A stretch of DNA of 64,000 nt, taken from NCBI GenBank assembly GCA_963743885.1, contig CAVURJ010000002.1:36721-100720 (forward strand), read 5' to 3'. This stretch comes from Candidatus Moraniibacteriota bacterium (lineage in GTDB: Bacteria > Patescibacteriota > Minisyncoccia > Moranbacterales > UBA1568). Position 1 is the first letter of the stretch; the number at the start of each line of letters is the position of its first letter. A program made the position numbers and the translations under genes. Shown here one piece after another: positions 18,236 to 60,300 of the stretch. A model generated the notes under the pieces. That model saw nothing but the letters and a program-made list of their open reading frames with translations. It did no database searches and was not told the origin of the DNA.

Positions 18236-18254
18236 CTTTTTTTGCTGTATCAAT

Positions 18255-38120: not shown

Positions 38121-38140
38121 GACTCGAATTGTTTCTTTTG

Positions 38141-41599: not shown

Positions 41600-41625
41600 T
41601 TGACAAGCGAAAAATGTGCTATAAT
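41600..41625 (+). promoter_or_regulatory. Extended -10 promoter TTGACA-14-TGcTATAAT upstream of the giant gene
   Basis: TTGACA 41600-41605, short 14-nt spacer compensated by a TGn extended -10 (TATAAT 41620-41625). Confidence 0.45.
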
Positions 41626-41653
41626 TCGTAGGTGAATCTGGTGCCGAGTTTGG

Positions 41654-44600
41654 GTGAAAGACATGCTGTCATATGTAAGAAATAAAAACCGAAAATCATT
41701 TGCTAAACTCCTGTTCTCCGCGATAGCGGTGGGGGTCATCTGTCTAGGGTGGTACAACATACGACCTGTTTTTGCGCAGTTTGTCGACGCACAGTCAATC
41801 CAGAGAATTGGCTTGTCTGCGTCACTTTTCAACTCTGAGAACCGTATTATCACGAACGGGACCTATGAGGTTCGCTTCGCGATTTACTCCAAGGACCGTG
41901 CGGAAAGTGATGTGTATCCGTCCAATGCCGACGCTGGCAGCCGGCTCTGGGAGGAGACACAGACGGTTTCGGTGAAGAACGGCGTCTTCCGTGTTTTCCT
42001 CGGCTCGGCCAATCCGCTGCCGGAATCGCTCACGTTCAACGAGGGGGATTACTATGTCGGCATGCGGATCGGGACTGATTCTGAGATGGTGCCGCGCAAG
42101 CGTCTCGGATCAGTGCCGCGTGCTATCAACTCGCAGTACCTCGGAGGGAAGCAGGTTGGCACGGGTGCCGGCGATATCCTCACGCTCGGCAACAAGGGTA
42201 AGATCGATATCAAGCAGCTTCCGACCGGGACGGGTTCGAAGCAGCTTGTGCTCGGCAATGATTCCCGCCTCCAGGATTCACACCAACAGAATTCGGATAT
42301 CGGAACTGACTCGACCGTCTTCACGATTGGTGACGGCGCATCGCTCGCAGACAATTTCTTGCTTAACGTTTCTTCAGCCAGCAATACGCCGGCTATCCGT
42401 TTCAATGGATCGACGGGAGCATGGCAGTTTTCGAATGATGGGACGACGTTTGCGGATATTTCCTCCGGCTCAAGCGGAACCTACCTGCCACTTGCTGGCG
42501 GAACGATGACGGGTGCAATCGTTTTCGCTCCGGCACAATCGTTTGCGGACCTGATTAGTCTTGGCGCGGATACAGTCGGGAATTATCTAGCATCTGTTTC
42601 CGGCGGGAATGGCATCGTGGTTTCTGGTTCTGGTTCTGAAGGAGCAACGCCGACGGTATCGCTCAGTCTGCTTGGTTCGGCCGATGGTACCGGGGCTGCT
42701 TCTTCCAACTCCGGTCTTGAATTCCAGGGAGTGGGGTTGAGTGAGCTTACGCTGCTCCAAGGTTGTTCAAATGGGCAGGGGCTCTCATGGAATGATACGA
42801 CGAATGTTTGGGAATGCACGAGCTTTTCTGCTGGGTTGGCAGGAAGCGGGACGGCTGGGTATGCGACGTATTGGAGCGGAGCGAGTTCGCTCGGTTCGGA
42901 GCAGTATCTTTCCTCAGTCCGTGGTGGCACTGGTCTTGATGCATCGGCTGCCAGCAACGGGTCGTTGCTCATTGGCAATGGCTCCGGGTTTACCTTGAAT
43001 ACATTGGCAGGATCGGGGGGTGTGACAGTGACTAATGCTGTCGGGATAATTACTCTTGGTCTTGATGCATTGACATCTGGCACTACGGCGACGACCTATT
43101 CCAATTCCGGTCTTGAGACGACTGCGGACGGTATCAGATTGCTCGGTGGCTGTAACGATGAACAGGTGCTCGCGTGGAACGCTACTCTTGAACGATGGGT
43201 ATGTTCCAACAAGACTGGTGGCACCAGCGATTGGACGAGCACTGGTTCGTACACATATCTGACCGATGCTACGGACGACCTGGTCATCGGCGGCGCGACG
43301 ACGGATGCAGGATTTTTCTTTGATGTTTCTGCTGGGACACTTGCCTTCGAAGGGACGACAGCTGACACATATGAGACGGCCATCGGCGTAATCGATCCGA
43401 CGGCTGATAATACTATCAATTTCCCCAATGTCTCTGGTACCGTTATCACCACCGGCAACCTTTCGAGCATCACTGCTACCGGCACCATCGCTTCCGGCAC
43501 GTGGAATGGCACGACGATCGATGTAGCGCACGGCGGTACGGGCGCTGCCACTTTGAGTGATCTCATCACTCTCGGCACTCATACCGTCGGCAGCTACGTT
43601 TCGACCATCGCTGCCGGCAACGGCATCTCGACCACCGGCGCTTCCTCTGGCGAGACTATCGCTCACACGCTGTCTCTCAAGCTCCTCATCTTAGCCGACA
43701 GCACTGGCGGCACCTCATCCAATTCTGGTCTTGAATTCCAAGGAGTTGGATCGGATTCCTTAGCATTGCTCCAGGGTTGCTCGAACGGGCAGGTCCTTTC
43801 CTGGAATGAAACGACGAGCGTCTGGGAGTGCAATTCTGTTTCTGGCATGGGTGGTGTCACGGGCTCAGCTACTTCTGGTCAGGTTGCCTACTGGGACAGC
43901 TCCTCTTCCATTGCTGGCGAGAACCAGCTTGCTGTTTCGAGAGGTGGTACGGGTATAGGCTCGTACACGATTGGCGATCTCCTCTACGCTTCCGGTGCCA
44001 CGACACTTTCCAGACTTGCTGATGTTGCGACGGGCAATGTACTCATCTCTGGCGGCCTCGGTATCGCGCCATCGTGGGGCAAAGTCGATTTGACGAGCCA
44101 TGTCACTGGCACGCTTCCAGTCGCGAATGGCGGCACTGGAGCTACTTCGCTGAATGATCTCATCACGCTTTCGACGCACACTACCGGCAACTACGTTGCG
44201 AGTGTCTCGAACGGCTCCGGTATCACAGGTGGCAGTGCTGGATCAGAAGGTGCAGCACTTACCCTCGCGATTGATCTCCTTGATTCAGCCGATGGCACTG
44301 GTTCCACATCGTCCAACTCCGGCCTCGAATTCCAGGGTGCAGGATCGAACGAGCTCACCCTCATCCAGGGCTGCTCAAACAACCAGATGCTTCTTTGGAA
44401 CGACACGACCTCCACCTGGTATTGTGGATCGGTTTCAGGTGCCGGCGGTATCGATGGTACTGGCACTGCCGGTTACAGCGCCTATTGGACTGATGTTGAT
44501 ACGCTGGCGAACGAGCAGTATGTCTCGGTTGCGAGGGGAGGGACAGGTCTTTCTGGATCGACCGCCGCGAACGGTACGCTCCTTATCGGCACCGGTACCG

Positions 44601-47600
44601 GGTATGCGCTGGCGACGCTCACGCAGGGTGCGGGCATGACTATTACCAATGGATCTGGCACTATTTCGCTTGCGACGACGCTCGGCGCTTCCGTTGATCT
44701 AGCGACTGAAATCACTGGTACTTTGCCGATTGGCAATGGTGGTACTGGGGTGGCGCTGACTGATCCGAATGCTGATCGTATCATGTTCTGGGATGATTCG
44801 GCGGGCGTGGTTGCTTTTCTGACGCCGGCGGCGAATCTCTCGATCTCCGGGACAACGATCGATCTCGCAGCGTCTGTTCAGCTCGGTGCTGATGGCACGG
44901 ACGGCGTGTTTGCGCTCTACTCTGAGCAGGGCGTGACGGACTACATGACAACCTTCCAGCCCGGCACCCAGACGCAGAATGTCACATACACGCTGCCGAA
45001 CGATGACGGCGCTTCCGGCCAGGTGCTTGTCACCAATGGTACTGGTACGCTTTCGTGGTCGAGTGTTTCCGGTGCGGGTGGTGTGACCGGTACGGGGACA
45101 ACAAACTATGTCGCGTATTGGGATAGCCCGAGCTCAATCGCGGCGGAGCAGTATCTGTCGCTCTCGCGGGGTGGTACGGGGACATCGCTCACCGATCCGA
45201 ATGCTGATCAGATCATGTTCTGGGATGATTCAGCAGGCAATGTCGCATTCCTTGCGCCATCTTCGAACCTTTCGATTTCAGGAACGGGTGTTGATCTCGC
45301 ATCCGCGGTCACGATTGGAAGTTCTTTGCAACTCGGCCAGAATGGCACCGATGGCACATTGACACTCTTCTCCGAGCAGGGCGCGACTGATTATACGACG
45401 GTGTTTCAGCCCGGCACCCAGACGCAGAATGTCACATACACGCTGCCGAACGATGACGGCGCTTCCGGCCAGGTGCTTGTCACCAATGGTACTGGTACGC
45501 TTTCGTGGTCGAGTGTTTCCGGTGCGGGTGGTGTGACCGGTACGGGGACAACAAACTATGTCGCGTACTGGGATAGCCCGAGCTCAATCGCGGCGGAGCA
45601 GTATCTGTCGCCTACGCGTGGTGGTACCGGCGTGGGCACATTCACGCCGAATGGCGTTCTCTACGGCAACGGCACCGGAGCTGTCCAGGTGACGGCAGCA
45701 GGTACTTCGGCGCAGCTTCTTCTTGCGAACGGTTCCGGTGTCCCGACGTTTGTCTCGATGTCGAGCGATGCCACCATTACGAATGCTGGCGTTCTTACGA
45801 TTGCGGCTGATGCGGTTGCTCTCGGCGGAGATACCACTGGCAACTACGTCGCCTCTGTCTCTACTTCCGCGACGACCGGGCTGACGGGCGGATCGGCTGG
45901 CAGCGAAAGTGCCGCGCTTTCGCTCGCATTCGATTATACGAGCACACTCGTCGGCAATCCGAGTCTCGCTGCAGGTAGTGCCGTCTTTGGTACGACCGGT
46001 CTCATCTTCGAGGGTACGACAGCAGATGCTTTTGAGGGCCTCCTGACATTGATCGATCCGACTACTGACAATACTTGGACGCTACCGAATGTTTCGGGAA
46101 CAGTCATTACGACTGGTAATCTCTCCTCTATTACCGCTACTGGCACGATCGCTTCTGGTACGTGGAACGGTACAGTCATCGGTGCCCAGTACGGCGGCAC
46201 CGGCGCAGCGACGCTCACGCCGAATGGCGTTCTCTACGGCAACGGCACCGGAGCTGTCCAGGTGACGGCAGCAGGTACTTCGGCGCAGCTTCTTCTTGCG
46301 AACGGTTCCGGTGTCCCGACGTTTGTCTCGATGTCGAGCGATGCCACCATTACGAATGCTGGCGTTCTTACGATTGCGGCTGATGCGGTTGCTCTCGGCG
46401 GAGATACCACTGGCAACTACGTCGCCTCTGTCTCGAATGGCTCCGGCATCACGGGCGGCAGCGTCGGATCGGAAGGCGCAGCGCTGACTCTCGCAATCGA
46501 CCTCCTCGACTCGGCCGATGGCGCCGGTTCTACTAGCTCTAACTCCGGACTCGAGTTCCAGGGGGCTGGTTCCAACGAGCTCGGGCTTCTCCAAGGTTGT
46601 GCGAACAATGAGGTTCTTTCTTGGAACGACACGACTTCCGTCTGGCAGTGTGCTTCCGTTTCTGGTGTCGGTGGCGTCACAGGATCTGGTGTCTCCGGCC
46701 AGGTGGCCTACTGGGATGGCACCTCGTCCATCGCCGGAGAGAACCAGCTCAGCGTTTCACGAGGCGGCACAGGTCTCGGCACCTACGTCATCGGCGATAT
46801 CCTCTACGCTTCCGGCGCAGCCGCTCTTTCGCGATTGGCGGATGTCGCGACGGGCAATGTGCTCATCTCTGGCGGTGTCGGCATTGCTCCATCCTGGGGC
46901 AAAGTCGACCTGATGAGTCATGTCACAGGCACTCTCTCAGTTGCAAATGGCGGCACGGGCGCCACGACGCTTGCTGACCTCATCACCCTCAGCACCCACA
47001 CCACCGGCAACTACGTCGCCTCTGTCTCAAACGGCTCCGGTATCACGGGCGGCAGCGCCGGATCGGAAGGGGCGGCGCTCACGCTCGCGCTCGGTGCCCT
47101 GACGGCGGACTGGAACCAGACCGGAGCCTTCGACATCGCGCTCGGCAACGCCTCGTCTGAGCTCAAGATCATGGAATCGACCGGAGCCACCTACTACGGC
47201 ATCTTCGACGTGGGGGATCTGAGCGCTGATCGGACGCTGACGGTGCCGAATGTTTCTGGTGTTATCGCGACCGTCGATGGTGCTCAGACCTTTACCTCTG
47301 CGACGTGGAACGGTACAGTCATCGGTGCCCAGTACGGCGGCACCGGCGCAGCGACGCTCACGCCGAATGGCGTTCTCTACGGCAACGGCACCGGAGCTGT
47401 CCAGGTGACGGCAGCAGGTACTTCGGCGCAGCTTCTTCTTGCGAACGGTTCCGGTGTCCCGACGTTTGTCTCGATGTCGAGCGATGCCACCATTACGAAT
47501 GCTGGCGTTCTTACGATTGCGGCTGATGCGGTTGCTCTCGGCGGAGATACCACTGGCAACTACGTCGCCTCTGTCTCGAATGGCTCCGGCATCACGGGCG

Positions 47601-50600
47601 GCAGCGTCGGATCGGAAGGCGCAGCGCTGACTCTCGCAATCGACCTCCTCGACTCGGCCGATGGCGCCGGTTCTACTAGCTCTAACTCCGGACTCGAGTT
47701 CCAGGGGGCATCGAGTAATGAACTGACACTTCTTCAAGGTTGTTCTGATAACAATGTGTTGGCGTGGCAAGATGCATCCAATTCTTGGATCTGCACGAGC
47801 GTCGGTGGCGTGGGTGCTGGTGATATCACTGCCGTAGGCGACGCGACTACCGGTGATGCATTCACAGCTGCTGGCACCTCTGGTACATCGCTCTATTTCT
47901 ATGATGCTGATGGCCGCGGCCAGTTGACGATTGCCAATCTGACAGCTGCGCGGACGTACACGCTCCCGAATGTCTCGGGTACTATCATCACGACCGGCGA
48001 TACCGGATCTGTCACGAGTACGATGCTTGCTGACTCAACCATCGCCGAAGCCGACCTCAGCGTCACCAACGCTGCGACTGCTGGCTACATCCTCTCCTAC
48101 GATGCAGGAGGTGGCTTCACCTGGATCGCCAACACTGGCGGCACCGGATCAAGCAAGTGGACCGACTCCGGCACCATCACGTACCTGACCAGTACGACCG
48201 ATGACGTCGCCTTGGGTGGTTCAACCAGCACGGCTTCCCGCTTCTTCTTCGATGTCACTACGGGGAACCAGATCATCTTCGAAGGTACCGGTGCTGATGA
48301 TGCCAACGAATCGACATTGGTCATCGCCAATCCAACAGCAGACAACACACTCACCATCCCGAACATCACTGGTACCTTCGTCACCACTGGCGATACTGCT
48401 TCCGTCACAGGTACGATGATCACCAACGATACGGTTGTCCTTACGACTGATACCGCTGGTAACTACGTCGCCTCTGTTTCAAACGGCTCCGGTATCACCG
48501 GTGGCAACGGGGGATCGGAAGGGGCGGCGCTCACGCTCGCGCTCGGTGCCCTGACGGCGGACTGGAACCAGACCGGAGCCTTCGACATCGCGCTCAACAA
48601 CGCCTCATCTGAGCTTAAGATCATGGAATCGACCGGCGCTACCTACTACGGCATCTTCGATGTTGGCGATCTCTCATCCGACCAGACCTACTCTTTCACG
48701 ACGGGCGGCACCGTCTGGACTTCAGGCAATGACGGTACCGGTTCGACCCTCGATGCCGATACCCTCGATGGGCATAGCGCTACCTACTTCCAGACCGTTC
48801 TCGCCAACCCGGTGACCGGTACGGGCACTAATGGTTACAATGCCTACTGGAACGGCACCGGCATGCTTGGAAGCGAGCAGTATGTCGCCACCTCGAGGGG
48901 AGGCACCGGTGTTAATGGCTCCGCTGCCGCGAACGGCGCCCTCCTGATCGGCAACAGCACCGGTTACAGTCTCGCGACCCTGACTCAAGGGTCTGGCGTA
49001 ACCATCACCAACGGATCGGGCACCATCACCATCGCGAGCACGCTCGGTACGTCTGTCGACCTCGCGAGCGAAGTGACGGGCACCCTCCCGGTTGCGAACG
49101 GCGGCACCGGCGCCACGACGCTCGCTGACCTCATCACGCTTTCGACGCACACCACCGGCAACTACGTCGCAAGTATCACCAACGGTTCCGGCATCACAGG
49201 TGGCAACGGGGGATCGGAAGGAGCCGCGCTCACTCTCGCTCTCTCGGCGCTTACGGCTGACTGGAACCAGACCGGTGCCTTCGATATCGCGCTCAACAAC
49301 GCCTCATCTGAGCTTAAGATCATGGAATCGACCGGCGCTACCTACTACGGCATCTTCGATGTCGGGGATCTCGCTTCTGACCAGACCTACTCTTTCACGA
49401 CGGGCGGCACCGTCTGGACTTCAGGCAATGACGGCTCAGGCTCGACCTTGGATGCGGATACCTTGGATGGTATCTCATCTGCTTCCTTCGTCCAGACGAG
49501 CGGACTGCTCTTCACTGCGGCCGGCACTTCGGGCAGTAGCCAATCCATCAACCAGGGCGATACACTCACCATCGCGGCTGGCACCGGCATCACAACGACG
49601 GGTGGAGTGACGGATACCATCACCATCGCGAGCACGCTCGGTACGGATATCTCTTCTTCTGAGATTGTTGATGGCACGATCGCGGAAGCTGATCTCAATG
49701 CGACAAATAGTCCGACAGCGGGATATGCACTTATCTATGACGTCGGTGGCGGTTTCACATGGGCGGATACGGGAGGTATGGGCAATTCCAAATGGACCGA
49801 TGCCGGGACGTTCACGTATCTCTCTGGGACTGCAGACAATATCGTAGTCGGTGCATCTACGGAGTCTGGAGCCGCTTTTGAGGTCGATACGGTGAACACT
49901 ACAATCAAGTTGAAAGAGGGCGGTACAACCCCGACGTATTTCGGCATCTTCGATGTTGGCGATCTCTCATCCGACCAGACCTACTCTTTCACGACGGGCG
50001 GCACCGTCTGGACTTCAGGCAATGACGGCTCAGGCTCGACCTTGGATGCGGATACCTTGGATGGTATCTCATCTGCTTCCTTCGTCCAGACGAGCGGACT
50101 GCTCTTCACTGCGGCCGGCACTTCGGGCAGTAGCCAATCCATCAACCAGGGCGATACACTCACCATCGCGGCCGGTACTGGCATTACGACGACGGGTGGA
50201 GCGACGGATACCATTACCATCGCCTCGACTTTGGGTACGTCTGTCGATCTCGCGAGCGAAGTGACAGGTACGCTTCCGGTTGCAAATGGCGGCACGGGCG
50301 CCACGACGCTTGCTGACCTCATCACCCTCAGCACCCACACCACCGGCAACTACGTCGCAAGTGTTTCGAATGGCTCCGGTATCACGGGTGGTAGCGCTGG
50401 ATCGGAAGGGGCGGCGCTCACGCTCGCGCTCGGTGCCCTGACGGCGGACTGGAACCAGACCGGAGCCTTCGACATCGCGCTCAACAACGCCTCATCTGAA
50501 CTCAAGATTCTTGGCTCAGCCGGCACCTACTACGGCATCTTTGATGTGGGAGCGCTTGGATCTGACCAGACCTACTCTTTCACGACGGGCGGCACCGTCT

Positions 50601-53600
50601 GGACTTCAGGCAATGACGGCTCAGGCTCGACCTTGGATGCGGATACACTTGATGGCCACGATACTGCCTACTTCCAGACCGCACTTACCAACCCGGTGAC
50701 CGGTACCGGTACCTCTGGCCAGGTGGCCTACTGGGACGGCACTTCGTCCATCGCCGGGGAGAACCAGCTTTCAGCGAGTAGGGGTGGTACCGGTATCAAC
50801 GGAGCCACCGCTGCCAATGGCACCCTCCTCATCGGCAACGGGACAGGCTACACGCTTGCCACTCTTACTGACGGCGCCGGTATCACGGTGACGGAAGGGG
50901 CGGGCACCATTACCATCGCCTCGACTTTGGGTACGTCTGTCGATCTCGCGAGCGAAGTGACAGGTACGCTTCCGGTTGCAAATGGCGGCACGGGCGCCAC
51001 GACGCTTGCTGACCTCATCACCCTCAGCACCCACACCACCGGCAACTACGTCGCAAGTGTTTCGAATGGCTCCGGTATCACGGGTGGTAGCGCTGGATCG
51101 GAAGGGGCGGCGCTCACGCTCGCGCTCGGTGCCCTGACGGCGGACTGGAACCAGACCGGAGCCTTCGACATCGCGCTCAACAACGCCTCATCTGAACTCA
51201 AGATTCTTGGCTCAGCCGGCACCTACTACGGCATCTTTGATGTGGGAGCGCTTGGATCTGACCAGACCTACTCTTTCACGACGGGCGGCACCGTCTGGAC
51301 TTCAGGCAATGACGGCTCAGGCTCGACCTTGGATGCGGATACCTTGGATGGTATCTCATCTGCTTCCTTCGTCCAGACGAGCGGACTGCTCTTCACTGCG
51401 GCCGGCACTTCGGGCAGTAGCCAATCCATCAACCAGGGCGATACACTCACCATCGCGGCCGGTACTGGCATTACGACGACGGGTGGAGCGACGGATACGG
51501 TGACCATCGCAGCCACCCTCGGTACCGACATCGCTTCCTCCGAGATCGTCGACTCAACCATCGCCGAAGCCGACCTCAGCGTCACCAACGCTGCGACTGC
51601 TGGCTACATCCTCTCCTACGATGCAGGAGGTGGCTTCACCTGGATCGCCAACACTGGCGGCACCGGATCAAGCAAGTGGACCGACTCCGGCACCATCACG
51701 TACCTGACCAGTACGACCGATGACGTCGCCTTGGGTGGTTCAACCAGCACGGCTTCCCGCTTCTTCTTCGATGTCACTACGGGGAACCAGATCATCTTCG
51801 AAGGTACCGGTGCTGATGATGCCAACGAATCGACATTGGTCATCGCCAATCCAACAGCAGACAACACACTCACCATCCCGAACATCACTGGTACCTTCGT
51901 CACCACTGGCGATACTGCTTCCGTCACAGGTACGATGATCACCAACGATACGGTTGTCCTTACGACTGATACCGCTGGTAACTACGTCGCCTCTGTTTCA
52001 AACGGCTCCGGTATCACCGGTGGCAACGGGGGATCGGAAGGGGCGGCGCTCACGCTCGCGCTCGGTGCCCTGACGGCGGACTGGAACCAGACCGGAGCCT
52101 TCGACATCGCGCTCAACAATACCTCGTCTGAACTCAAGATTCTTGGCTCAGCCGGCACCTACTACGGCATCTTTGATGTGGGAGCGCTTGGATCTGACCA
52201 GACCTACTCTTTCACGACGGGCGGCACCGTCTGGACTTCAGGTAATGATGGCTCCGGATCGACCCTTGATGCCGACCTCTTGGACGGTCTCTCATCCGCC
52301 TCCTTCGTCCAGACGAGCGGACTGCTCTTCACCGCGGCCGGTACTTCGGGTAGTAGCCAATCCATCAACCAGGGCGATACGCTCACCATCGCGGCCGGTA
52401 CTGGCGTTACGACGACGGGCGGAGCGACGGATACCATTACCATCGCCTCGACTTTGGGCACGTCTGTCGATCTCGCGAGCGAAGTGACGGGTACGCTCCC
52501 GGTTGCAAATGGCGGCACGGGCGCCACGACGCTTGCTGACCTCATCACCCTCAGCACCCACACCACCGGCAACTACGTCGCCTCTGTCTCAAACGGCTCC
52601 GGTATCACGGGTGGTAGCGCTGGATCGGAAGGGGCGGCGCTCACTCTCGCTCTCTCGGCGCTTACGGCTGACTGGAACCAGACCGGTGCCTTCGATATCG
52701 CGCTCAACAACGCCTCATCCGAACTGAAGATTCTCGAGAGTCTCGGCGATACCTACTACGGCATCTTCGATGTTGGCGATCTCTCGGCTGATCGGACACT
52801 GACGGTACCGAATGTTTCTGGTGTTATCGCGACTCTCGATGGAAGCCAGACCTTCACGTCCGCGACGTGGAACGGCACCGCCATCGGTGCCCAGTACGGC
52901 GGCACCGGCCTCAATACGAGCGCTTCGACCGGCGTCCCGACCATTTCCTCTGGCACCTGGAGCGTCGATACCAATTATCTCTCTCTCGCTCACGGCGGTA
53001 CCAATGCTTCTCTCACCGCCAGTAACGGAGGCATCGTTTATTCTACGGCTTCAGCCCTTTCCGTCCTGGCGGCTAATGCCAACTCCGGCCTTGCTCTCGT
53101 CTCAGGCGGTGCCGGTGCTCCGACCTGGTTCGCTCCGACTGTAGGGTCTGTCATCTTCGCTGGTGCGAACGGGGCATTGTCCTCGAGCAATACGCAGTTC
53201 TTCTGGGACAATACGAACAATTACCTCGGTATCGGTGATGCTACCCCGACGAACCAGTTCGATCTCCTCTCATCGTCAGCTGCGCATAATGGCATCATCA
53301 TTACCAATACCAATGCGGGTAACTACAATCCGATCATGCAGTTCGAGTTGACGGAAAATACACCGCTCTTCACGCTCGGCATCGATGATTCCGATTCTGA
53401 CAAGTTCAAGATTACGACCGGATCGGATATTTCCGGGACCAGCCAGTTCACTATAGATTCGTCCGGGACGACCTCGATCGCCAATCTCAATCTTGGCGCG
53501 ACCACGTTCGACGCGGATGCCGGCATCGTATCGTGGATTGACATGCCAGTGACGTCGTCGGCGACGGCTGGAACGGTGGAAAGTTACACTGCCCAACTTG

Positions 53601-56600
53601 ACGGTAACGCCCTCCTCACTGTTTATGGCGAATCCGATGGCGCCGGTTCTATTCAGAACTCCGGTGTCTCTATCGGTAACTCGACTCTCCAGTCCGGAGC
53701 CAAGTTTGCTGTGACCCAGGCTTTGACCACGACGACCGCCGGTACGATGTACGGTGTCTACAATTCCACGACGGATACCGGCATCGTCACCACGGGTACC
53801 GATACGACCTATGGCGTCTACAATACCGTCACGCGGACCGGTGCGACGGGCGGTACGATCAGCAATTATGGAGAGTACATCAGCCTGACCGGCGACACGG
53901 GTGGCACCAGTATCAACACTGGCCTCTATGTCACCGTCACCGGAGCGGATACCAATTATGCAGCCAACTTCATGGGTGGCAATGTTGGTATCGGCGACAG
54001 TACACCTGCTGCGCTTCTTACCGTCGGCAGTGGGGATCTCTTCCAGGTGAACAGCTCCGGTCAGGTCGCAGCCGGCACCTGGCAGGGTACAGTCATCGGT
54101 GCCCAGTACGGCGGCACCGGCGCAGCGACGCTCACGCCGAATGGCGTTCTCTACGGCAACGGCACCGGAGCTGTCCAGGTGACGGCAGCAGGTACTTCGG
54201 CGCAGCTTCTTCTTGCGAACGGTTCCGGTGTCCCGACGTTTGTCTCGATGTCGAGCGATGCCACCATTACGAATGCTGGCGTCCTTACGATTGCGGCTGA
54301 TGCGGTTGCTCTCGGCGGAGATACCACTGGCAACTACGTCGCCTCTGTCTCGAATGGCTCCGGTATCACCGGTGGTAGCGCTGGATCAGAAGGAGCAGCC
54401 CTCACCCTCGCCCTCGGTGCTCTCACGGCTGACTGGAACCAGACCGGAGCCTTCGACATCGCGCTCGGCAACGCCTCGTCTGAGCTCAAGATCATGGAAT
54501 CGACCGGAGCCACCTACTACGGCATCTTCGACGTGGGGGATCTGAGCGCTGATCGGACACTGACGGTGCCGAATGTTTCTGGTGTTATCGCGACCGTCGA
54601 TGGTGCTCAGACCTTTACCTCTGCGACGTGGAACGGTACAGTCATCGGTGCCCAGTACGGCGGCACCGGCCTCAATACGAGCGCTTCGACCGGCGTCCCG
54701 ACCATCTCCTCTGGCACCTGGAGCGTCTCCTCATCTCTTGGTGTCACTTTGGGAGGCACCGGCACGACGACCCAGTTCACTCCTGGCTCCATTGTTTTTG
54801 CTGGAGCAAGCGGCGTTTACAGTCAAGATAACGCCAACTTCTTCTGGGATGATACGAACAACCGGCTGGGTATTGGGACGGTGAGTCCTAGTGCGTCGCT
54901 TGATATCTATGGTACGTCCAATGCGCTCCGGCTCTCGTATGACAGCAGTAATTACGCGACATTGTCGACAGCTAGTACTGGAGATTTGTCAATCACGAGT
55001 TCGAATACGAGTGAGGCGGCAGTCGTGATCGGGACGGGCAGCGCCCAAGATGTTTCTGTTCAATTCGATGGAGCTTCTTACGATTATTTTTCTGGTCTTG
55101 ATCATACCACTGGCATGTACATGGTCGGTCCCGGATTTACAGTGCAGGGTGGGAACGCGGCGCTTACGATCGCTTCAACTGGGAATGTCGGCATTGGTAC
55201 AGGTGCTACAGCGCCAACTGCCCGCTTGGATGTATCGCTTGGTTCTACTTCAACAACAGGCGCTACGGAATATAGTGTTCGCAATACTCTCTCTGATACC
55301 GGCATCGTCACCACGGGTACCGATACGACCTATGGCGTCTACAATACCGTCACGCGGACCGGTGCGACGGGCGGTACGATCAGCAATTATGGAGAGTACA
55401 TCAGCCTGACCGGCGACACGGGTGGCACCAGTATCAACACTGGCCTCTATGTCACCGTCACCGGAGCGGATACCAATTATGCAGCCAACTTCATGGGTGG
55501 CAATGTTGGTATCGGCGACAGTACGCCTGCTGCGCTTCTTACCGTCGGCAGTGGGGATCTCTTCCAGGTGAACAGCTCCGGTCAGGTCGCAGCCGGCACC
55601 TGGCAGGGTACAGTCATCGGTGCCCAGTACGGCGGTACTGGTCTTAATACTTCCGCTTCGACTGGCGTTCCGACCATCTCTTCCGGCACGTGGTCTGTCA
55701 ATTCTGCGCTTGGCGTGACGACTGGCGGTACGGGCACGACGACCCAGTTTACTTTAGGTTCCATCGTTTTTGCTGGAGGATCCGGAGTCTATAATCAGGA
55801 TAATGCCAATTTCTTCTGGGATGATACGAACAATCGTCTCGGTATTGGCACGACTACTCCGAATGCTGGCCTCGATATCCTGAAGACAACCGCTCAGCTC
55901 CGTCTCTCATATGATGCATCGAACTACACGGCCTTTACGGTGGCGAGTGATGGGTCCATCATGATCGATCCGAGTGGCAGTGGCAACAACGTCCTCACAA
56001 TTGGTGATGGGGGAGCGACGGATCAGAATGTTCTTTTCGATGGCAATACGAATGACTACTATGTCGGTCAGGATGATACGGATGATAGTCTGAAGGTTGG
56101 TCTCGGGTCGGCAGTTGGCACCAATACCTATCTGACGGTTGCATCCGGTGGTAATGTGACAGTCAATACGGGGCAGCTTAACGCGTCGGCAGACGGTGTC
56201 GTGACCAAGGTAAATGCTGGAAATTGCAGCGATTCGACGTTTGCGACTGATACGGACGGCACGTTGTGCGTCGATTCGACAAGCGGTTCTGAGCGCCTCT
56301 ATTTCCGCGAGGGTGGTGCTTGGAACTATATCGCCAAGACAGGCGGTTTCCAGATTCCGAATTATGAGACAGCGCCACAGGATGATCTGACAGCCCAAGC
56401 CGAGGGCTCTCTGGAACAGAATACTGAGGATGTATCGCATTACCCTGAGTATTTGACTGATCGCATGCAGCCAGGCGAACTGCTTATCCCGTATGTCGAT
56501 GAATACCTTTCGGATGGCGCGGTCCATGGTTTGTATGCTCGTTTTACGGATGTGAAGGACGCGATGTTCGCTGATGAGAGGGCGGAGATTGCTGAGCTCA

Positions 56601-57292
56601 AGAGTTCGGCAGATTCATTCCTTGAATTGTACGGCCGCGTCGATGACATAGAGCGGGGATTGAGTGCGCTTATCGATCCGGAAGATGGGGAAATCGCGCT
56701 TGTGAAGAATAGTGTTGCTGATGCGCAGCGGAGCATCGTGGGATTGGATGGCCGGATGACGGTTCTGGAAAGCCAGGTCGCGGCGCTGTATGAGTTTTAC
56801 ACGAGCACCGAGCTCGGCAGTATTGTTACGAAGGATGTGACCGGTAGCGTCGATCTTTTGGATGGTAGCCTGACAGCGCAGCTTGTGCAGGCTGGTCTTG
56901 TCAAGGCGGATCTGATTGAGGGTGTCATTTCTGGCGGCATAGCTATTGAGAATGCTGATGAGACATCGCAGACCATTGGCACGGCGGTTATTTGCCCGAT
57001 TGTCACGGACACGGATAGCGATGGCAAGGATGACTGTTCAGGTATTGATATAGCTGATGCTGATGCGGTAGCGGATCAGGATGGTACGTATGTGGAGGTC
57101 AAGACCAAGGCGATGATTCCGATGGTCAACGGCTCTCGTGTCTTCACAACCTTCAAGGACAACCCGAATGCGTTCAGTTGGATCGAGAAGATCAAGGATG
57201 AAGACGGAGAATATGTCGGTTTCAAGATCCGTCTCGATAAGGCAGTGACCGCCAAGGTGAAGGTTGATTGGCTCTTGGTTGAACAGAAATAA
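41654..57292 (+). CDS. Giant secreted/cell-surface Thr/Gly/Ser-rich repeat protein (5212 aa), probable fibrous adhesin
   Basis: Single uninterrupted frame. N-terminal signal/anchor 'FAKLLFSAIAVGVICLGWYNIRPVFA'. Recurring modules 'LPVANGGTGATTLADLITLSTHTTGNYVASVSNGSGITGGSAGSEGAALTLAL' and 'TGATYYGIFDVGDLSSDQTYSFTTGGTVWTSGNDG'. Distinct C-terminal ~330-aa non-repetitive domain. Start may be GTG 41654 or ATG 41663. Confidence 0.85.
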   Translation: MKDMLSYVRNKNRKSFAKLLFSAIAVGVICLGWYNIRPVFAQFVDAQSIQRIGLSASLFNSENRIITNGTYEVRFAIYSKDRAESDVYPSNADAGSRLWEETQTVSVKNGVFRVFLGSANPLPESLTFNEGDYYVGMRIGTDSEMVPRKRLGSVPRAINSQYLGGKQVGTGAGDILTLGNKGKIDIKQLPTGTGSKQLVLGNDSRLQDSHQQNSDIGTDSTVFTIGDGASLADNFLLNVSSASNTPAIRFNGSTGAWQFSNDGTTFADISSGSSGTYLPLAGGTMTGAIVFAPAQSFADLISLGADTVGNYLASVSGGNGIVVSGSGSEGATPTVSLSLLGSADGTGAASSNSGLEFQGVGLSELTLLQGCSNGQGLSWNDTTNVWECTSFSAGLAGSGTAGYATYWSGASSLGSEQYLSSVRGGTGLDASAASNGSLLIGNGSGFTLNTLAGSGGVTVTNAVGIITLGLDALTSGTTATTYSNSGLETTADGIRLLGGCNDEQVLAWNATLERWVCSNKTGGTSDWTSTGSYTYLTDATDDLVIGGATTDAGFFFDVSAGTLAFEGTTADTYETAIGVIDPTADNTINFPNVSGTVITTGNLSSITATGTIASGTWNGTTIDVAHGGTGAATLSDLITLGTHTVGSYVSTIAAGNGISTTGASSGETIAHTLSLKLLILADSTGGTSSNSGLEFQGVGSDSLALLQGCSNGQVLSWNETTSVWECNSVSGMGGVTGSATSGQVAYWDSSSSIAGENQLAVSRGGTGIGSYTIGDLLYASGATTLSRLADVATGNVLISGGLGIAPSWGKVDLTSHVTGTLPVANGGTGATSLNDLITLSTHTTGNYVASVSNGSGITGGSAGSEGAALTLAIDLLDSADGTGSTSSNSGLEFQGAGSNELTLIQGCSNNQMLLWNDTTSTWYCGSVSGAGGIDGTGTAGYSAYWTDVDTLANEQYVSVARGGTGLSGSTAANGTLLIGTGTGYALATLTQGAGMTITNGSGTISLATTLGASVDLATEITGTLPIGNGGTGVALTDPNADRIMFWDDSAGVVAFLTPAANLSISGTTIDLAASVQLGADGTDGVFALYSEQGVTDYMTTFQPGTQTQNVTYTLPNDDGASGQVLVTNGTGTLSWSSVSGAGGVTGTGTTNYVAYWDSPSSIAAEQYLSLSRGGTGTSLTDPNADQIMFWDDSAGNVAFLAPSSNLSISGTGVDLASAVTIGSSLQLGQNGTDGTLTLFSEQGATDYTTVFQPGTQTQNVTYTLPNDDGASGQVLVTNGTGTLSWSSVSGAGGVTGTGTTNYVAYWDSPSSIAAEQYLSPTRGGTGVGTFTPNGVLYGNGTGAVQVTAAGTSAQLLLANGSGVPTFVSMSSDATITNAGVLTIAADAVALGGDTTGNYVASVSTSATTGLTGGSAGSESAALSLAFDYTSTLVGNPSLAAGSAVFGTTGLIFEGTTADAFEGLLTLIDPTTDNTWTLPNVSGTVITTGNLSSITATGTIASGTWNGTVIGAQYGGTGAATLTPNGVLYGNGTGAVQVTAAGTSAQLLLANGSGVPTFVSMSSDATITNAGVLTIAADAVALGGDTTGNYVASVSNGSGITGGSVGSEGAALTLAIDLLDSADGAGSTSSNSGLEFQGAGSNELGLLQGCANNEVLSWNDTTSVWQCASVSGVGGVTGSGVSGQVAYWDGTSSIAGENQLSVSRGGTGLGTYVIGDILYASGAAALSRLADVATGNVLISGGVGIAPSWGKVDLMSHVTGTLSVANGGTGATTLADLITLSTHTTGNYVASVSNGSGITGGSAGSEGAALTLALGALTADWNQTGAFDIALGNASSELKIMESTGATYYGIFDVGDLSADRTLTVPNVSGVIATVDGAQTFTSATWNGTVIGAQYGGTGAATLTPNGVLYGNGTGAVQVTAAGTSAQLLLANGSGVPTFVSMSSDATITNAGVLTIAADAVALGGDTTGNYVASVSNGSGITGGSVGSEGAALTLAIDLLDSADGAGSTSSNSGLEFQGASSNELTLLQGCSDNNVLAWQDASNSWICTSVGGVGAGDITAVGDATTGDAFTAAGTSGTSLYFYDADGRGQLTIANLTAARTYTLPNVSGTIITTGDTGSVTSTMLADSTIAEADLSVTNAATAGYILSYDAGGGFTWIANTGGTGSSKWTDSGTITYLTSTTDDVALGGSTSTASRFFFDVTTGNQIIFEGTGADDANESTLVIANPTADNTLTIPNITGTFVTTGDTASVTGTMITNDTVVLTTDTAGNYVASVSNGSGITGGNGGSEGAALTLALGALTADWNQTGAFDIALNNASSELKIMESTGATYYGIFDVGDLSSDQTYSFTTGGTVWTSGNDGTGSTLDADTLDGHSATYFQTVLANPVTGTGTNGYNAYWNGTGMLGSEQYVATSRGGTGVNGSAAANGALLIGNSTGYSLATLTQGSGVTITNGSGTITIASTLGTSVDLASEVTGTLPVANGGTGATTLADLITLSTHTTGNYVASITNGSGITGGNGGSEGAALTLALSALTADWNQTGAFDIALNNASSELKIMESTGATYYGIFDVGDLASDQTYSFTTGGTVWTSGNDGSGSTLDADTLDGISSASFVQTSGLLFTAAGTSGSSQSINQGDTLTIAAGTGITTTGGVTDTITIASTLGTDISSSEIVDGTIAEADLNATNSPTAGYALIYDVGGGFTWADTGGMGNSKWTDAGTFTYLSGTADNIVVGASTESGAAFEVDTVNTTIKLKEGGTTPTYFGIFDVGDLSSDQTYSFTTGGTVWTSGNDGSGSTLDADTLDGISSASFVQTSGLLFTAAGTSGSSQSINQGDTLTIAAGTGITTTGGATDTITIASTLGTSVDLASEVTGTLPVANGGTGATTLADLITLSTHTTGNYVASVSNGSGITGGSAGSEGAALTLALGALTADWNQTGAFDIALNNASSELKILGSAGTYYGIFDVGALGSDQTYSFTTGGTVWTSGNDGSGSTLDADTLDGHDTAYFQTALTNPVTGTGTSGQVAYWDGTSSIAGENQLSASRGGTGINGATAANGTLLIGNGTGYTLATLTDGAGITVTEGAGTITIASTLGTSVDLASEVTGTLPVANGGTGATTLADLITLSTHTTGNYVASVSNGSGITGGSAGSEGAALTLALGALTADWNQTGAFDIALNNASSELKILGSAGTYYGIFDVGALGSDQTYSFTTGGTVWTSGNDGSGSTLDADTLDGISSASFVQTSGLLFTAAGTSGSSQSINQGDTLTIAAGTGITTTGGATDTVTIAATLGTDIASSEIVDSTIAEADLSVTNAATAGYILSYDAGGGFTWIANTGGTGSSKWTDSGTITYLTSTTDDVALGGSTSTASRFFFDVTTGNQIIFEGTGADDANESTLVIANPTADNTLTIPNITGTFVTTGDTASVTGTMITNDTVVLTTDTAGNYVASVSNGSGITGGNGGSEGAALTLALGALTADWNQTGAFDIALNNTSSELKILGSAGTYYGIFDVGALGSDQTYSFTTGGTVWTSGNDGSGSTLDADLLDGLSSASFVQTSGLLFTAAGTSGSSQSINQGDTLTIAAGTGVTTTGGATDTITIASTLGTSVDLASEVTGTLPVANGGTGATTLADLITLSTHTTGNYVASVSNGSGITGGSAGSEGAALTLALSALTADWNQTGAFDIALNNASSELKILESLGDTYYGIFDVGDLSADRTLTVPNVSGVIATLDGSQTFTSATWNGTAIGAQYGGTGLNTSASTGVPTISSGTWSVDTNYLSLAHGGTNASLTASNGGIVYSTASALSVLAANANSGLALVSGGAGAPTWFAPTVGSVIFAGANGALSSSNTQFFWDNTNNYLGIGDATPTNQFDLLSSSAAHNGIIITNTNAGNYNPIMQFELTENTPLFTLGIDDSDSDKFKITTGSDISGTSQFTIDSSGTTSIANLNLGATTFDADAGIVSWIDMPVTSSATAGTVESYTAQLDGNALLTVYGESDGAGSIQNSGVSIGNSTLQSGAKFAVTQALTTTTAGTMYGVYNSTTDTGIVTTGTDTTYGVYNTVTRTGATGGTISNYGEYISLTGDTGGTSINTGLYVTVTGADTNYAANFMGGNVGIGDSTPAALLTVGSGDLFQVNSSGQVAAGTWQGTVIGAQYGGTGAATLTPNGVLYGNGTGAVQVTAAGTSAQLLLANGSGVPTFVSMSSDATITNAGVLTIAADAVALGGDTTGNYVASVSNGSGITGGSAGSEGAALTLALGALTADWNQTGAFDIALGNASSELKIMESTGATYYGIFDVGDLSADRTLTVPNVSGVIATVDGAQTFTSATWNGTVIGAQYGGTGLNTSASTGVPTISSGTWSVSSSLGVTLGGTGTTTQFTPGSIVFAGASGVYSQDNANFFWDDTNNRLGIGTVSPSASLDIYGTSNALRLSYDSSNYATLSTASTGDLSITSSNTSEAAVVIGTGSAQDVSVQFDGASYDYFSGLDHTTGMYMVGPGFTVQGGNAALTIASTGNVGIGTGATAPTARLDVSLGSTSTTGATEYSVRNTLSDTGIVTTGTDTTYGVYNTVTRTGATGGTISNYGEYISLTGDTGGTSINTGLYVTVTGADTNYAANFMGGNVGIGDSTPAALLTVGSGDLFQVNSSGQVAAGTWQGTVIGAQYGGTGLNTSASTGVPTISSGTWSVNSALGVTTGGTGTTTQFTLGSIVFAGGSGVYNQDNANFFWDDTNNRLGIGTTTPNAGLDILKTTAQLRLSYDASNYTAFTVASDGSIMIDPSGSGNNVLTIGDGGATDQNVLFDGNTNDYYVGQDDTDDSLKVGLGSAVGTNTYLTVASGGNVTVNTGQLNASADGVVTKVNAGNCSDSTFATDTDGTLCVDSTSGSERLYFREGGAWNYIAKTGGFQIPNYETAPQDDLTAQAEGSLEQNTEDVSHYPEYLTDRMQPGELLIPYVDEYLSDGAVHGLYARFTDVKDAMFADERAEIAELKSSADSFLELYGRVDDIERGLSALIDPEDGEIALVKNSVADAQRSIVGLDGRMTVLESQVAALYEFYTSTELGSIVTKDVTGSVDLLDGSLTAQLVQAGLVKADLIEGVISGGIAIENADETSQTIGTAVICPIVTDTDSDGKDDCSGIDIADADAVADQDGTYVEVKTKAMIPMVNGSRVFTTFKDNPNAFSWIEKIKDEDGEYVGFKIRLDKAVTAKVKVDWLLVEQK
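45647..54351 (+). repeat. Nested near-identical segmental duplications inside the giant gene
   Basis: ~215-bp block identical at 45647-45862, 46220-46434, 47363-47577 and 54137-54351 (copies 2 and 3 are 1143 bp apart). ~600-bp block identical at ~48020-48600 and ~51536-52120. Further copies at 49930-50250, 50540-50660 and 51210-51500. Confidence 0.85.
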
Positions 57293-57323
57293 GGTAAAGA
57301 GTTAAGAAGGAAAAGAAGACAGG

Positions 57324-60300
57324 ATGACAAAGGGATATATGAAACCTGAAAGGCGATTAGGAACAATTCTGTGGAGGGCGGCACCTGTTCTGGTTGTTTT
57401 TGCGATTATCGGAGCGGCCGGTTTCGGTTTGGTAAGGCTATGGCAGCATGAGATGGCAGTGATTATTCCTGATGAACTGGCATCTGGGACGGCTCGCACG
57501 GTCACGCTGGTAGCTGGAAAGGATTATCACGTATCGGGTCAATCAGTTGTCGAGAACGTACCGGACAACGAGATGCTTGCTGCTTTTCCGATGCTTCAGG
57601 ACGGATTTTCCGATCTTTCATTTTCGATGGATGCTGATGCGAATATCGCAAAATCAGCTATTGAAAAGACGGTTTCCCTGTCTGAGAGTGCTGGTCGGGT
57701 GGCGAGTGAATATTCACTTGATGGAATGCGTATTACGACAGAGTATCGTGAGAATGATTCTATTTCAAAACAGTCTGAAAATCAGAAGATGCTTGGCGGA
57801 GGAGAGGGGAGTATATCTATCAAGCAGACGATAACGTTGAAGAACGATCAGGACCAGGAAAAGAAGGTGGCTTTTTCCGTACGGACTAAGATAGCGGCAG
57901 ATAAGGTCGTATGGGATGGCCGCGAATACCGGCTTACCGGTCAGCATGAGACATTTCGTGCTTACGAGAAGACGGCTTCCGTGCCGGAATTCGCCAAGGA
58001 TATGGGACAGAAGGATCTCAAGGGTATCGATGCGTTCAAGGACTATACGCACACCTATACGGTCGGTTCCTCGCTCTCGTTCGCCGACAAGGATGGGAAT
58101 ATGGCCGATTATGATTGGAGTGATGCGCTCGCCTTTCATCCGGAGGTGGTCGCTTATCGCGAGGGTGATGCGTCGTATATCGAGCTCCGGCTTTCGGGGG
58201 TCACGGTTCCGGCGTATGGCGAGACGGTCATCGATCCGGACTATGACCTGGCATCGGGAGCCGGCTACACGGCACGCTACGATGGGGCGTACATAAACAA
58301 TAGCATCAGTTCGATTGCCGTCAGCGATGTGAATGGCGACGGTTTCTCTGATCTCGTCATCAGTTCGCCGTATGCGAGTAATAATAGTCGCACTGGCTCT
58401 GGCTCTGTCTATATCGTATTCCGCAAAGCCGATTCTCCCAGTGGAGTACAGAGTCTTGATGTCGCTGCACACTACAACATCCGCTATGATGGGGCAGCGG
58501 CAGGCGATACTTTCGGGTCAGCAGTGGTCGTCGGCGATGTGAATGGCGATAGCCATTCTGATCTTATCGTCGGTGCATCGACCGCGAGTAATAATAGCCG
58601 CTCCTATTCCGGTTCCGTCTACGTCTTCTTCTCTACCCTGATTGACGATGTCGGCGCCACGACGGGTAACAATCTCGACCTCGCTACCGGGACCAACTAC
58701 AACATCCGCTATGATGGGGCAGCGGCAGGCGATACTTTCGGGTCAGCAGTGGTCGTCGGCGATGTGAATGGCGATAGCCATCCTGATCTTATCGCTGGTG
58801 TGCCGTATGCGAGCAATAATAGTCGCTCCGCTTCCGGTTCCGCCTACGTCTTCTTCTCTACTCTGATCGATGATGTCGGCGCCACGACGGGTAACAATCT
58901 CGACCTCGCTACCGGGACCAACTACAACATCCGCTATGACGGCGCGGAGGCAGGTGACTTTATGGGGCAGTCTGTCACAACAGGCGACGTGAATGGCGAT
59001 AGTTATCCCGACCTCGTGTTGGGCACACCGGACGCTGGCAACAATGCCCGTTCTGGGTCTGGCTCCGTCTACGTCTTCTTCTCTACTCTGATCGATGATG
59101 TCGGCGCCACGACGGGTAACAATCTCGACCTCGCTACCGGGACCAACTACAACATCCGCTATGACGGCGCGGAGGCAGGTGACTTTATGGGGCAGTCTGT
59201 CACAACAGGCGACGTGAATGGCGATAGCCATTCTGATCTTATCGTCGGTGCATCGACCGCGAGTAATAATAGTCGCTCCGCTTCCGGTTCCGCCTACGTC
59301 TTCTTCTCTACTCTGATCGATGATGTCGGCGCCACGACGGGTAACAATCTCGACCTCGCTACCGGGACCAATTACAACATCCGCTATGATGGTGCGGTCG
59401 CAGGTGACTATATAGGACAGACTGCCACAACAGGCGACGTGAATGGCGATAGCCATCCTGATCTTATCGTCGGTGCATCGACCGCGAGCAATAATAGTCG
59501 CTCCGCTTCCGGTTCCGCCTACGTCTTCTTCTCTACTCTGATCGATGATGTCGGCGCCACGACGGGTAACAATCTCGACCTCGCTACCGGGACCAATTAC
59601 AACATCCGCTATGATGGTGCGGTCGCAGGTGACTATATAGGACAGACTGCCACAACAGGCGACGTGAATGGCGATAGCCATCCTGATCTTATCGTCGGTG
59701 CATCGACCGCGAGTAATAATAGTCGCTCCGCTTCCGGTTCCGCCTACGTCTTCTTCTCTACTCTGATCGATGATGTCGGCGCCACGACGGGTAACAATCT
59801 CGACCTCGCTACCGGGACCAATTACAACATCCGCTATGATGGTGCGGTCGCAGGTGACTATATGGGGCAGTCTGTCACAACAGGCGACGTGAACAGCGAC
59901 GGTTATTCGGATATGATCGCTCAGACACAAGCGTCTTCGGGGGATGATCTTGTGTACATCTTATTCTCTACTTTGATTGACGACGTGGGCGCCACCACCG
60001 GCAACAATTTTGATTTGGCTACGAGCACTAATTACAGTGCGCGCTTTGATGGTGCGCCGTCGCTGGGCACATATGTCGATGGCCGATTAGCTATCGGCGA
60101 CGTGAACGGTGACGGTATAGATGATCTCGTGATTGGAGGAGTGAGTATCTATGTTATTTTCGGCGGACAGCATCCTACGGGAAACCGTTTGCTTACGGTG
60201 GCCGGGAATTATAATATCCGTTATAACAGCGTTAGCACTCATATTGCCATCGGCGACGTGAACGGCGACGGTTTCTCTGATCTTGTTATCGGTTCATCAT

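Follow-up and report, generated by a model that had tools for sequence, protein, structure and literature searches.

Identical in-frame repeats and signs of intragenic recombination in a giant putative surface-fibre gene of a Moraniibacteriota bacterium

Known repeat-rich fibres and the giant gene

In RTX fibrillar adhesins the interior repeats are identical at the DNA level, the end repeats have diverged and the number of repeats varies between strains; short-read assemblies of these genes are truncated or marked 'partial' (bioRxiv 10.1101/2025.09.30.679566). A gene of comparable build is described here from a Candidatus Moraniibacteriota bacterium (assembly GCA_963743885.1, contig CAVURJ010000002.1), in a stretch of 64,000 nucleotides (nt; positions 36,721 to 100,720 of the forward strand of the contig) that is called the window below and to which all coordinates refer. 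The giant gene is a single open frame coding for 5212 amino acids (aa). It is probably a chromosomal gene for a Sec-exported fibre of Moranbacteria-like Patescibacteria, in which in-frame intragenic recombination homogenises the copies that make up the central shaft. It resembles the RTX adhesin genes in its homogenised interior, its divergent ends and the cut short-read assemblies of the locus. By analogy, the product would also be built like these adhesins, as a giant secreted fibre that is anchored through its N-terminus and binds with a distal C-terminal region. Unlike RTX adhesins, the giant protein has no BIg extender, RTX beta-roll or type I secretion signal (no Pfam or NCBIfam match), its gene is a combinatorial mosaic of about 16 module types at 34 offsets rather than a tandem array of one domain, and its host is a Patescibacteria bacterium.

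The cagY gene of Helicobacter pylori carries dispersed direct DNA repeats, always gives in-frame products and yields size variants of a surface-exposed protein (PMC2194252). The giant gene is likewise rich in dispersed direct repeats, all 34 offsets of which are multiples of three, whereas the two genes have no sequence relationship and the giant protein contains no VirB10-type domain. For cagY, variants of different size have been documented inside a population. Variation of cagY is linked to immune evasion; the modules of the giant gene, in contrast, are under purifying selection.

The long tail fibres of phages share short modules with the giant protein and have a similar mosaic, modular build with a distinct C-terminal tip. 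Unlike these fibres, the giant gene is chromosomal, begins with a putative signal peptide, lies in cellular synteny and lacks Peptidase_S74, and its tip is absent from viral contigs. Typical phage fibres are several times shorter than the giant protein. Within the Patescibacteria, Patescibacterium danicum encodes giant FhaB-domain proteins of >4000-6000 aa that are presumed to act in adhesion and have no full-length homologues, and its authors speculate on domain reshuffling by homologous recombination (PMC11809585). The giant protein is also a giant Patescibacteria protein with a presumed role in adhesion, but it has no FhaB/haemagglutination-activity domain or DUF2341 and represents a different family; recombination, speculated on in the Patescibacterium danicum genes, is demonstrated here from the sequence of the gene. 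The 'giant genes' of Omnitrophota and others are repeat-rich, fragment short-read assemblies and have been proposed to serve adhesion (bioRxiv 10.1101/2023.11.21.568195). Unlike the product of the present gene, theirs measure at least 30,000 aa and carry enzymatic domains or domains of the HEAT or dockerin type, and these genes are related to it neither in sequence nor in architecture.

A trimeric autotransporter adhesin was considered and rejected, as there is no Pfam match and hence no YadA-type anchor, head or stalk. Judged by the absence of the defining domains from its sequence, the giant protein belongs to none of the RTX, FhaB, trimeric autotransporter adhesin, CagY or Peptidase_S74 families. 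The phenomenon is ordinary for bacterial surface-fibre genes; the family itself is uncharacterised. Particular to this locus are the non-tandem mosaic of about 16 modules, the combination of a shaft shared with phages and a cell-specific tip, and the lack of coverage by any curated family.

Identical blocks and their geometry

Exact repeats of at least 100 nt cover 5593 nt, or 36% of the 15,639-nt gene (Table 1), and the zone that holds them, 44957-55635, extends further than the original prediction had it. All identical blocks listed in the original prediction are present to within about 5-15 nt, and the recurrence it placed at 46437/47577 sits inside the 407-nt exact block at 46160/47303; the 437-, 341- and 161-nt blocks had not been listed. 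The 569-nt pair extends to 590 nt at 99.2% identity, and the blocks at 49942/50533/51229 are 92-96% identical and contain an exact tract of 239 nt. The repeats are real and far beyond chance: the longest exact repeat of 569 nt compares with a mean of 14.9 nt and a maximum of 19 nt in 100 codon shuffles, and the remaining 41 kb of the window reach 31 nt.

The geometry of the repeats is strictly in frame. All 54 repeat diagonals are multiples of three, as are all 34 offsets between exact pairs of at least 50 nt, and therefore every product of recombination between them stays in frame. TRF, with a longest period of 500 nt, finds no tandem array in the gene. The higher-order period of 1143 bp that had been proposed has the right spacing, which is that of the 407-nt pair, but it is one offset among 34 and not a period. 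Its diagonal holds only 407 nt of identity and about 100 nt of decaying similarity, with background identity on both sides, and tandem periodicity, including a 1143-nt period, is rejected by TRF and by this identity profile.

Table 1. The giant gene, its identical blocks and its neighbours in the window
Feature	Position	Strand	Remarks
Giant open reading frame	41654..57292	+	single open frame; 15,639 nt, 5212 aa from GTG 41654
Possible promoter	41600..41625	+	TTGACA, 14-nt spacer, TGCTATAAT (extended -10); read by eye; low confidence
Putative signal peptide or signal anchor	41654..41776	+	basic n-region RNKNRKSFAK, hydrophobic LLFSAIAVGVICLGW, then VFA|Q
Unique N-terminal domain, aa ~42-297	41777..42544	+	no internal repeat; conserved in orthologues
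Old diverged shaft modules, aa 298-1100	42545..44953	+	string TEYVEKNTEYLTEYL...
Exact-repeat zone (homogenised central and distal shaft)	44957..55635	+	cassettes of modules V, T, E, Y, L, W, F, I, A, K, R, S, H, Z
161-nt block	44957/45407	+	44957 is the first exact repeat
220-nt block, V module into GNYVASVS motif of T	45642-45861, 46215-46434, 47358-47577	+	exact in three copies
220-nt block, fourth copy	54132-54351	+	1 mismatch (151 + 68 nt exact)
407-nt exact block, modules N/R-V-T-E to GLEFQG motif	46160-46566, twin 47303-47709	+	offset 1143
569-nt exact block, modules A-K-T-W to ADWNQ...ALNN motif	48032-48600, twin 51551-52119	+	
437-nt exact block, modules L'-T-W-F	50210-50646, twin 50906-51342	+	
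341-nt block, Z module	53774-54114, twin 55295-55635	+	one mismatch; the exact repeats of the gene end with the twin
C-terminal 'tip' domain, aa 4880-5212 (~330 aa)	56291..57289	+	conserved; motifs, coiled coil, then beta-domain
orf235, conserved upstream partner	40910..41593	+	N-terminal transmembrane helix, Pro/Thr-rich linker, beta-rich ectodomain
FG-GAP repeat protein, conserved downstream	57324..61802	+	1492 aa, 15 FG-GAP repeats; gene call ATG 57339

Recombination between module copies

The repeat-built shaft extends from aa ~298 to 4840. Hidden Markov models built on the giant protein itself resolve it into about 16 module types of 19-115 aa, rich in Gly, Thr, Ser and Ala, which follow each other in the order TEYVEKNTEYLTEYLDYDYVTKNVTEYLTWRVTEKAKTWFYLTWFIA-WFITWFYLTWFIAKTWFITWRS-H-Z-VTWRSH-ZSH. 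On each repeat diagonal the identity climbs from background to 100% and drops back within 30-60 nt. Several blocks end inside a module whose homologous remainder is only 50-85% identical, as in the E module past the 407-nt block and the W module past the 569-nt block, and the ends of blocks fall on motifs that recur in many module variants (GNYVASVS, GLEFQG, ADWNQ..ALNN and DADTLDG).

Single copies are themselves mosaics. In an alignment of eight T-W copies (261 nt, 86 polymorphic sites), which presupposes a correct assembly, copy 3431 first tracks copy 2258 and later 2887/3119, three changes of donor are seen in copy 3628, and the last third of copy 4215 is identical to 1774. The four-gamete test fails for 547 of 1128 informative site pairs among these eight copies, and none of 2000 permutations gave so few incompatibilities between neighbouring sites (p < 0.0005).

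Comparison with other genomes points the same way (labels beginning with L and P denote homologue loci and proteins; L028 is GCA_037201605.1, JBBCGM010000002.1). For every copy between aa ~1330 and 4650, nucleotide identity is 0.9-1.0 with a sister within the gene and 0.65-0.8 with any copy from another genome. Against L028, the nearest copy is found in the own gene for 14 of 14 T copies and eight of eight W copies, and the same holds for nine of nine T copies of L028 itself; the only exceptions are N-proximal copies and one L copy. The N-proximal modules at aa 298-640 have their closest counterparts in other genomes, not within the gene itself, and thus behave as positional orthologues. The central copies cluster by genome and therefore evolve in concert: the interior repeats have been homogenised while the terminal repeats have diverged. 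The claim of very recent duplication or ongoing gene conversion is borne out by this clustering, by the chimeric copies and by the significant recombination signal.

Codons that differ between repeat copies are synonymous in 915 cases and non-synonymous in 218 (81% synonymous); 74% of the differences between copies fall at third codon positions and 32% involve adenine. These counts speak for purifying selection on the module sequences and contradict the antigenic sequence variation that had been envisaged, so that the variable trait would be the length and architecture of the fibre and not its epitope sequence. Biased gene conversion, of which a shift in GC content at third codon positions (GC3) would be a sign, was rejected, since the GC3 of the repeat zone (0.656) lies inside the range of 0.54-0.71 of other genes; the higher GC of the zone is due to its Gly/Thr/Ser/Ala-rich composition.

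These features would be explained by homologous recombination among in-frame module copies, through unequal crossing-over and gene conversion that presumably depend on RecA. Exchanges would begin and end in the shared motifs GNYVASVS, GLEFQG, ADWNQ and DADTLDG. As an outcome, the central shaft would undergo concerted evolution while cassettes are gained, lost, duplicated and re-ordered. Modules near the anchor, distal modules and the tip would stay fixed, with changes confined to the length of the shaft and the order of its modules.

Anatomy of the protein

An independent gene call in the Logan assembly starts the giant frame at ATG 41663 and gives 5209 aa. The signal peptide was read from the translation by eye. 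The N-terminal domain is 63% identical in L026 and 47% in L027, and the relative P0007 also has it. The candidate promoter was not called in a promoter scan because of its 14-nt spacer. No part of the giant protein has a Pfam, NCBIfam or PDB-sequence match (shaft and N-terminal domain searched).

The tip is marked by the motifs GFQIPNYE and PYVDEY..DGAVHGLYARF.DVK, which form invariant alignment columns. Its family comprises 252 clusters among 1.84 billion representatives and is found at or near the C-terminal end of proteins that range from fragments up to 5166 aa, and it has no relative in 2.9 million viral contigs. In an AlphaFold2 model of the C-terminal domain the last ~110 aa reach a predicted local distance difference test (pLDDT) score of ~85. 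A Foldseek search of the PDB with this model gave no significant match (best E = 0.015) and only local hints of tailspike receptor-binding tips and a trimeric lectin; weak coiled-coil matches to reovirus sigma-1 are likewise only a hint. The view of the gene product as a surface fibre, taken from the original prediction, is supported by the signal peptide, the modules in common with phage tail fibres and the conserved C-terminal tip. The N-terminus would be held at the cell with the tip at the distal end, possibly in a trimer, and the fibre may serve attachment to a host or partner cell.

Shaft modules recur in viral proteins. They match the Synechococcus phage S-CBS1 tail fiber and S-CREM2 long tail fiber proteins at 41-76% over 29-75 aa, with E = 3e-4 to 8e-4 and in short stretches only; the giant protein has a weak match to a PHROG tail-fibre family (phrog_31660, E = 7.7e-5), and 101 stretches in IMG/VR match shaft modules. 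Some relatives are named 'tail fiber domain-containing'. Peptidase_S74 (PF13884) is absent from the giant protein and present in some relatives (P0008, P0009, P0012 and the L028 ORF, or open reading frame, at 16072-18249).

Hypothetical proteins of Vibrio phages are also matched by shaft modules (hits H1-H6, which include the Synechococcus tail fibres), and L030 (IMGVR_UViG_GVMAG-M-3300024252-27_000001), binned as a giant-virus metagenome-assembled genome (MAG), matches at 60% over 70 aa. The matches to phages and to the giant-virus MAG suggest that this fibre-module vocabulary is widely shared.

Relatives, synteny and length range

The window is part of a cellular chromosome, with genes for aminoacyl-tRNA synthetases, ATP synthase subunits, TGT, FolD, ParA and ParB, almost all on one strand. 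The order parA-parB-orf235-giant gene-FG-GAP gene is also found in L003 and L008. The upstream genes are kept in L026 and L027, where the contigs then end, and L028 has FolD-ParB upstream and the FG-GAP gene downstream. The records of the best relatives are named Candidatus Moranbacteria or Moraniibacteriota, and L028 is the closest, at 70% aa identity. Orthologues use the same module vocabulary: the TEYVEK module order is common to the giant gene, L003 and L026, and the distal RS-H-Z...H-tip arrangement is also common to relatives. Long exact internal repeats occur in L028 (up to 457 nt, with another cassette, VTEYL, amplified), L017 (408 nt), L014 (239 nt) and L005 (221 nt), and the behaviour therefore belongs to the family and not to one assembly.

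The L028 locus (3853-18892, ~15 kb) is called as ~14 consecutive ORFs with 10 frame switches, and some of its exact-repeat offsets are not multiples of three; both reflect either indel errors of noisy long reads or a decaying gene. Many MAGs with a Moranbacteria-type locus (L002-L005, L008, L009, L012-L014, L017, L020 and L022-L025) are titled 'uncultured Bdellovibrionales', 'Saccharibacteria' or 'Gammaproteobacteria'; such titles are probably taxonomic mislabels or signs of contaminated bins. The name 'trimeric autotransporter adhesin' occurs only on JGI (Joint Genome Institute) records of distant homologues.

At the syntenic locus the protein measures 2175 aa in L008 and 2394 aa in L003 (both complete), at least 3688 aa in L005 and 5212 aa in the window, and the locus of L028 spans ~15 kb. 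Single deletions between existing exact pairs of the giant gene, of which there are 46, would yield proteins of 2382-5062 aa, which is the range seen among orthologues. The length variation foreseen in the original prediction is supported only indirectly, by orthologues of 2175-5212 aa. Near-identical fragments from other samples were not found, the best shaft match being 70% identical, and the best match among GTDB representatives is 50% identical. Recombination inside exact repeats makes no new k-mers, and look-ups of contigs therefore cannot reveal size variants.

A bolder reading, offered tentatively and in itself rather unlikely, is that of a recombination-tunable 'molecular ruler'. Within one Moranbacteria population, in-frame gain and loss of cassettes would then keep producing cells whose fibres differ in module order and in length (~2,400 to >5,000 aa) while anchor and tip stay constant, their reach fitted to the envelopes of different hosts, and the shaft vocabulary would be exchanged with the tail fibres of phages of the same hosts. 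If true, episymbionts would use for attachment what phages have in their fibre mosaicism, in a cellular version.

Assembly of the repeat zone

Logan contigs represent an independent k=31 assembly of run ERR12035942 from the same population. Proteins identical to the ParA and orf235 of the window are on record in a contig of 0.2-1 Mb and in short Logan contigs of this run. The orf235 Logan contig measures 4932 nt and ends at window position 44986, with 30 nt of the first exact repeat (from 44957) included, and its partial giant product has 1108 aa, equal to (44986 - 41663 + 1) / 3. A second break was predicted beforehand, with a contig start 29 nt short of the point (55635) where the last exact repeat ends and a product from 55607. 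This product was found as an exact 561 aa in a 2895-nt Logan contig of the same run, which continues into the FG-GAP gene and stops at 58500, 29 nt into the first exact repeat of that gene. A k=31 multiplicity map of the window has unique runs at 41600-44986 and 55606-58500 (2895 nt), matching the Logan contigs, and between them an interior of ~165 nodes with k-mers present up to six times. The copy numbers on this map are about four for the 151-nt (45642-45792) and 68-nt cores of the 220-nt block, about two for the 510-nt core (48032-48541) of the 569-nt block and about six for cores of 36-47 nt. Both unique ends of the giant gene are independently confirmed to the base, and k-mer assembly demonstrably cannot resolve its interior. 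Contig ends also cut the homologue at 12 of 25 genome loci and at both metagenome loci, and the L026 contig ends just where the Z module starts repeating. The warning of an assembly hazard is directly supported by the breaks at both repeat edges and by the cut homologues.

In practical terms the locus is a worked example of how far a giant gene derived from a metagenome can be trusted: its ends are confirmed, while the 10.7-kb interior is beyond k-mer assembly. The protein lengths given by MAGs for this giant-fibre family, many of them 'partial' and some possibly collapsed, are not to be taken at face value.

An assembly artefact is the first alternative to be weighed. It holds that the gene and its repeats exist, but that the order and number of cassettes, the chimeras and the 15.6-kb length were made or distorted by the assembler. 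The tangled k=31 graph, the recovery of only the two unique ends by the independent assembly and the cut homologues are all in its favour. In addition, donor switches fall in stretches that are exact across three copies, such as the 89-101 nt at 52031/48512/50399, where a path through the graph can switch, and the in-frame state does not discriminate: all offsets are multiples of three, and a mis-ordered assembly would therefore stay in frame as well. However, the window letters contain no N, and 10.7 kb of repeats run through without an N, a stop or a frameshift; the exact ParA and orf235 in a contig of 0.2-1 Mb suggest that long-range information was used. L028, an independently assembled contig of 346 kb, has an equally large locus (~15 kb) whose exact repeats reach 457 nt, several further relatives carry long exact internal repeats, and copies cluster by genome whatever the order of the cassettes. 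On balance an artefact of this kind is considered unlikely, though it carries real weight.

Several points weigh against recombination in a chromosomal fibre gene as the explanation. How many cassettes lie between 44957 and 55635, and in what order, depends wholly on whatever long-range information went into the source assembly, and mis-threading of a de Bruijn graph through shared exact stretches (89-101 nt at the switch examined) would give the same chimeras. Short orthologues in short-read MAGs could be collapsed assemblies that exaggerate the length range. Length variation that still goes on in the population is inferred from the zero divergence of the blocks. The picture of a fibre and a trimer draws only on sequence analogies, and AlphaFold2 monomer models are poor, with a pLDDT of 59 for the C-terminal domain and of 54 for a shaft super-module that is mostly coil. 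Finally, recA and the host or partner organism lie outside the window.

Other explanations of the repeats

A one-off burst of recent segmental duplications, with no gene conversion, would leave a gene that is now stable and whose identity reflects youth. Zero divergence is compatible with very recent duplication, and several blocks start at module boundaries behind a different upstream module, as at the 5' end of the 569-nt block, which fits the insertion of cassettes. Such a burst does not account for identity that often stops inside modules that remain homologous beyond it at 50-85% (E after the 407-nt block, W after the 569-nt block), for single copies that change donor two to three times in 261 nt or for the pervasive four-gamete failures. 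L028 shows the same pattern with a different amplified cassette, and the process therefore recurs in the lineage. A single burst is accordingly held to be improbable, and intragenic recombination among module copies is preferred to it.

Programmed diversification for antigenic or host-range variation could act through a diversity-generating retroelement (DGR), silent-cassette switching or site-specific inversion. In its favour, DGRs abound in Patescibacteria, the protein is exposed at the cell surface, and an IVP-family four-helix-bundle ORF with a weak bAvd Pfam match lies 2 kb upstream (39318-39704). None of the 24 larger window ORFs that were scanned matched a reverse transcriptase, invertase or recombinase, however, and the differences between copies, with their small share of adenine and their excess of third-position and synonymous changes, are the opposite of what a DGR or diversifying selection would produce. 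A DGR was rejected, given that no reverse transcriptase was found among these ORFs and that mismatches are not adenine-specific; an invertible segment was rejected because no inverted repeats were found in the giant gene. All copies lie inside the expressed ORF, hence there are no silent cassettes, and programmed diversification is very improbable as a whole.

Just as far-fetched is a prophage or tailocin tail-fibre gene in place of a cellular surface protein: the weak PHROG match, the modules in common with cyanophage tail-fibre proteins and many viral contigs, and the Peptidase_S74 domains and 'tail fiber' names of some relatives are outweighed by the locus between parB and the FG-GAP gene in at least five genomes, the N-terminal signal peptide (read by eye), the tip without a viral relative and the 24 scanned ORFs, whose matches are all to housekeeping families and none to a virion, terminase or integrase family.

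Neighbouring genes and further features of the window

The upstream partner orf235 is 52-64% identical in L003, L008 and L026 and 35% in L027, and its exact 227-aa product is on record in the independent Logan assembly. Its only Pfam match is a weak one to Pur_ac_phosph_N (E = 0.003), and it may be part of the same surface apparatus as the giant fibre. The downstream FG-GAP gene contains tandem arrays with a unit of 225 nt (75 aa) at 58471-59893 and 60248-61369, with 89% and 73% identity and exact tracts of up to 224 nt. In uncultured Moranbacteria, the conserved neighbourhood of orf235, fibre and FG-GAP protein is a concrete candidate for the apparatus of attachment to a host.

Further observations concern other parts of the window. 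The ORF for leucyl-tRNA synthetase (31239-34145, 968 aa) has a NUDIX Pfam match (E = 5.6e-8) at aa 412-505, where it separates the editing domain from the remainder of the catalytic core, and nt 32048-32071 of the same ORF hold three overlapping GAATCAAGAA motifs with a 7-nt period. The same motif flanks parA, where (TTGATTC)n/(GAATCAA)n heptamers at 38460-38490, 39299-39330 and 39690-39721 form inverted repeats that bracket parA and a 128-aa ORF. The Logan record of this four-helix-bundle ORF (39318-39704) carries a Pfam match to 23S_rRNA_IVP and a weak one to bAvd, and an ORF at ~61891-62250, 3' of the FG-GAP gene, resembles it by eye. Among the housekeeping genes, an ORF of 476 aa (18427-19857) has no Pfam match at E <= 1e-5. 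The only tRNA gene of the window, tRNA-Leu(caa) at 38140-38223, is flanked by GC-rich inverted repeats of 32 nt (38090-38121/38244-38275) that are 81% complementary.

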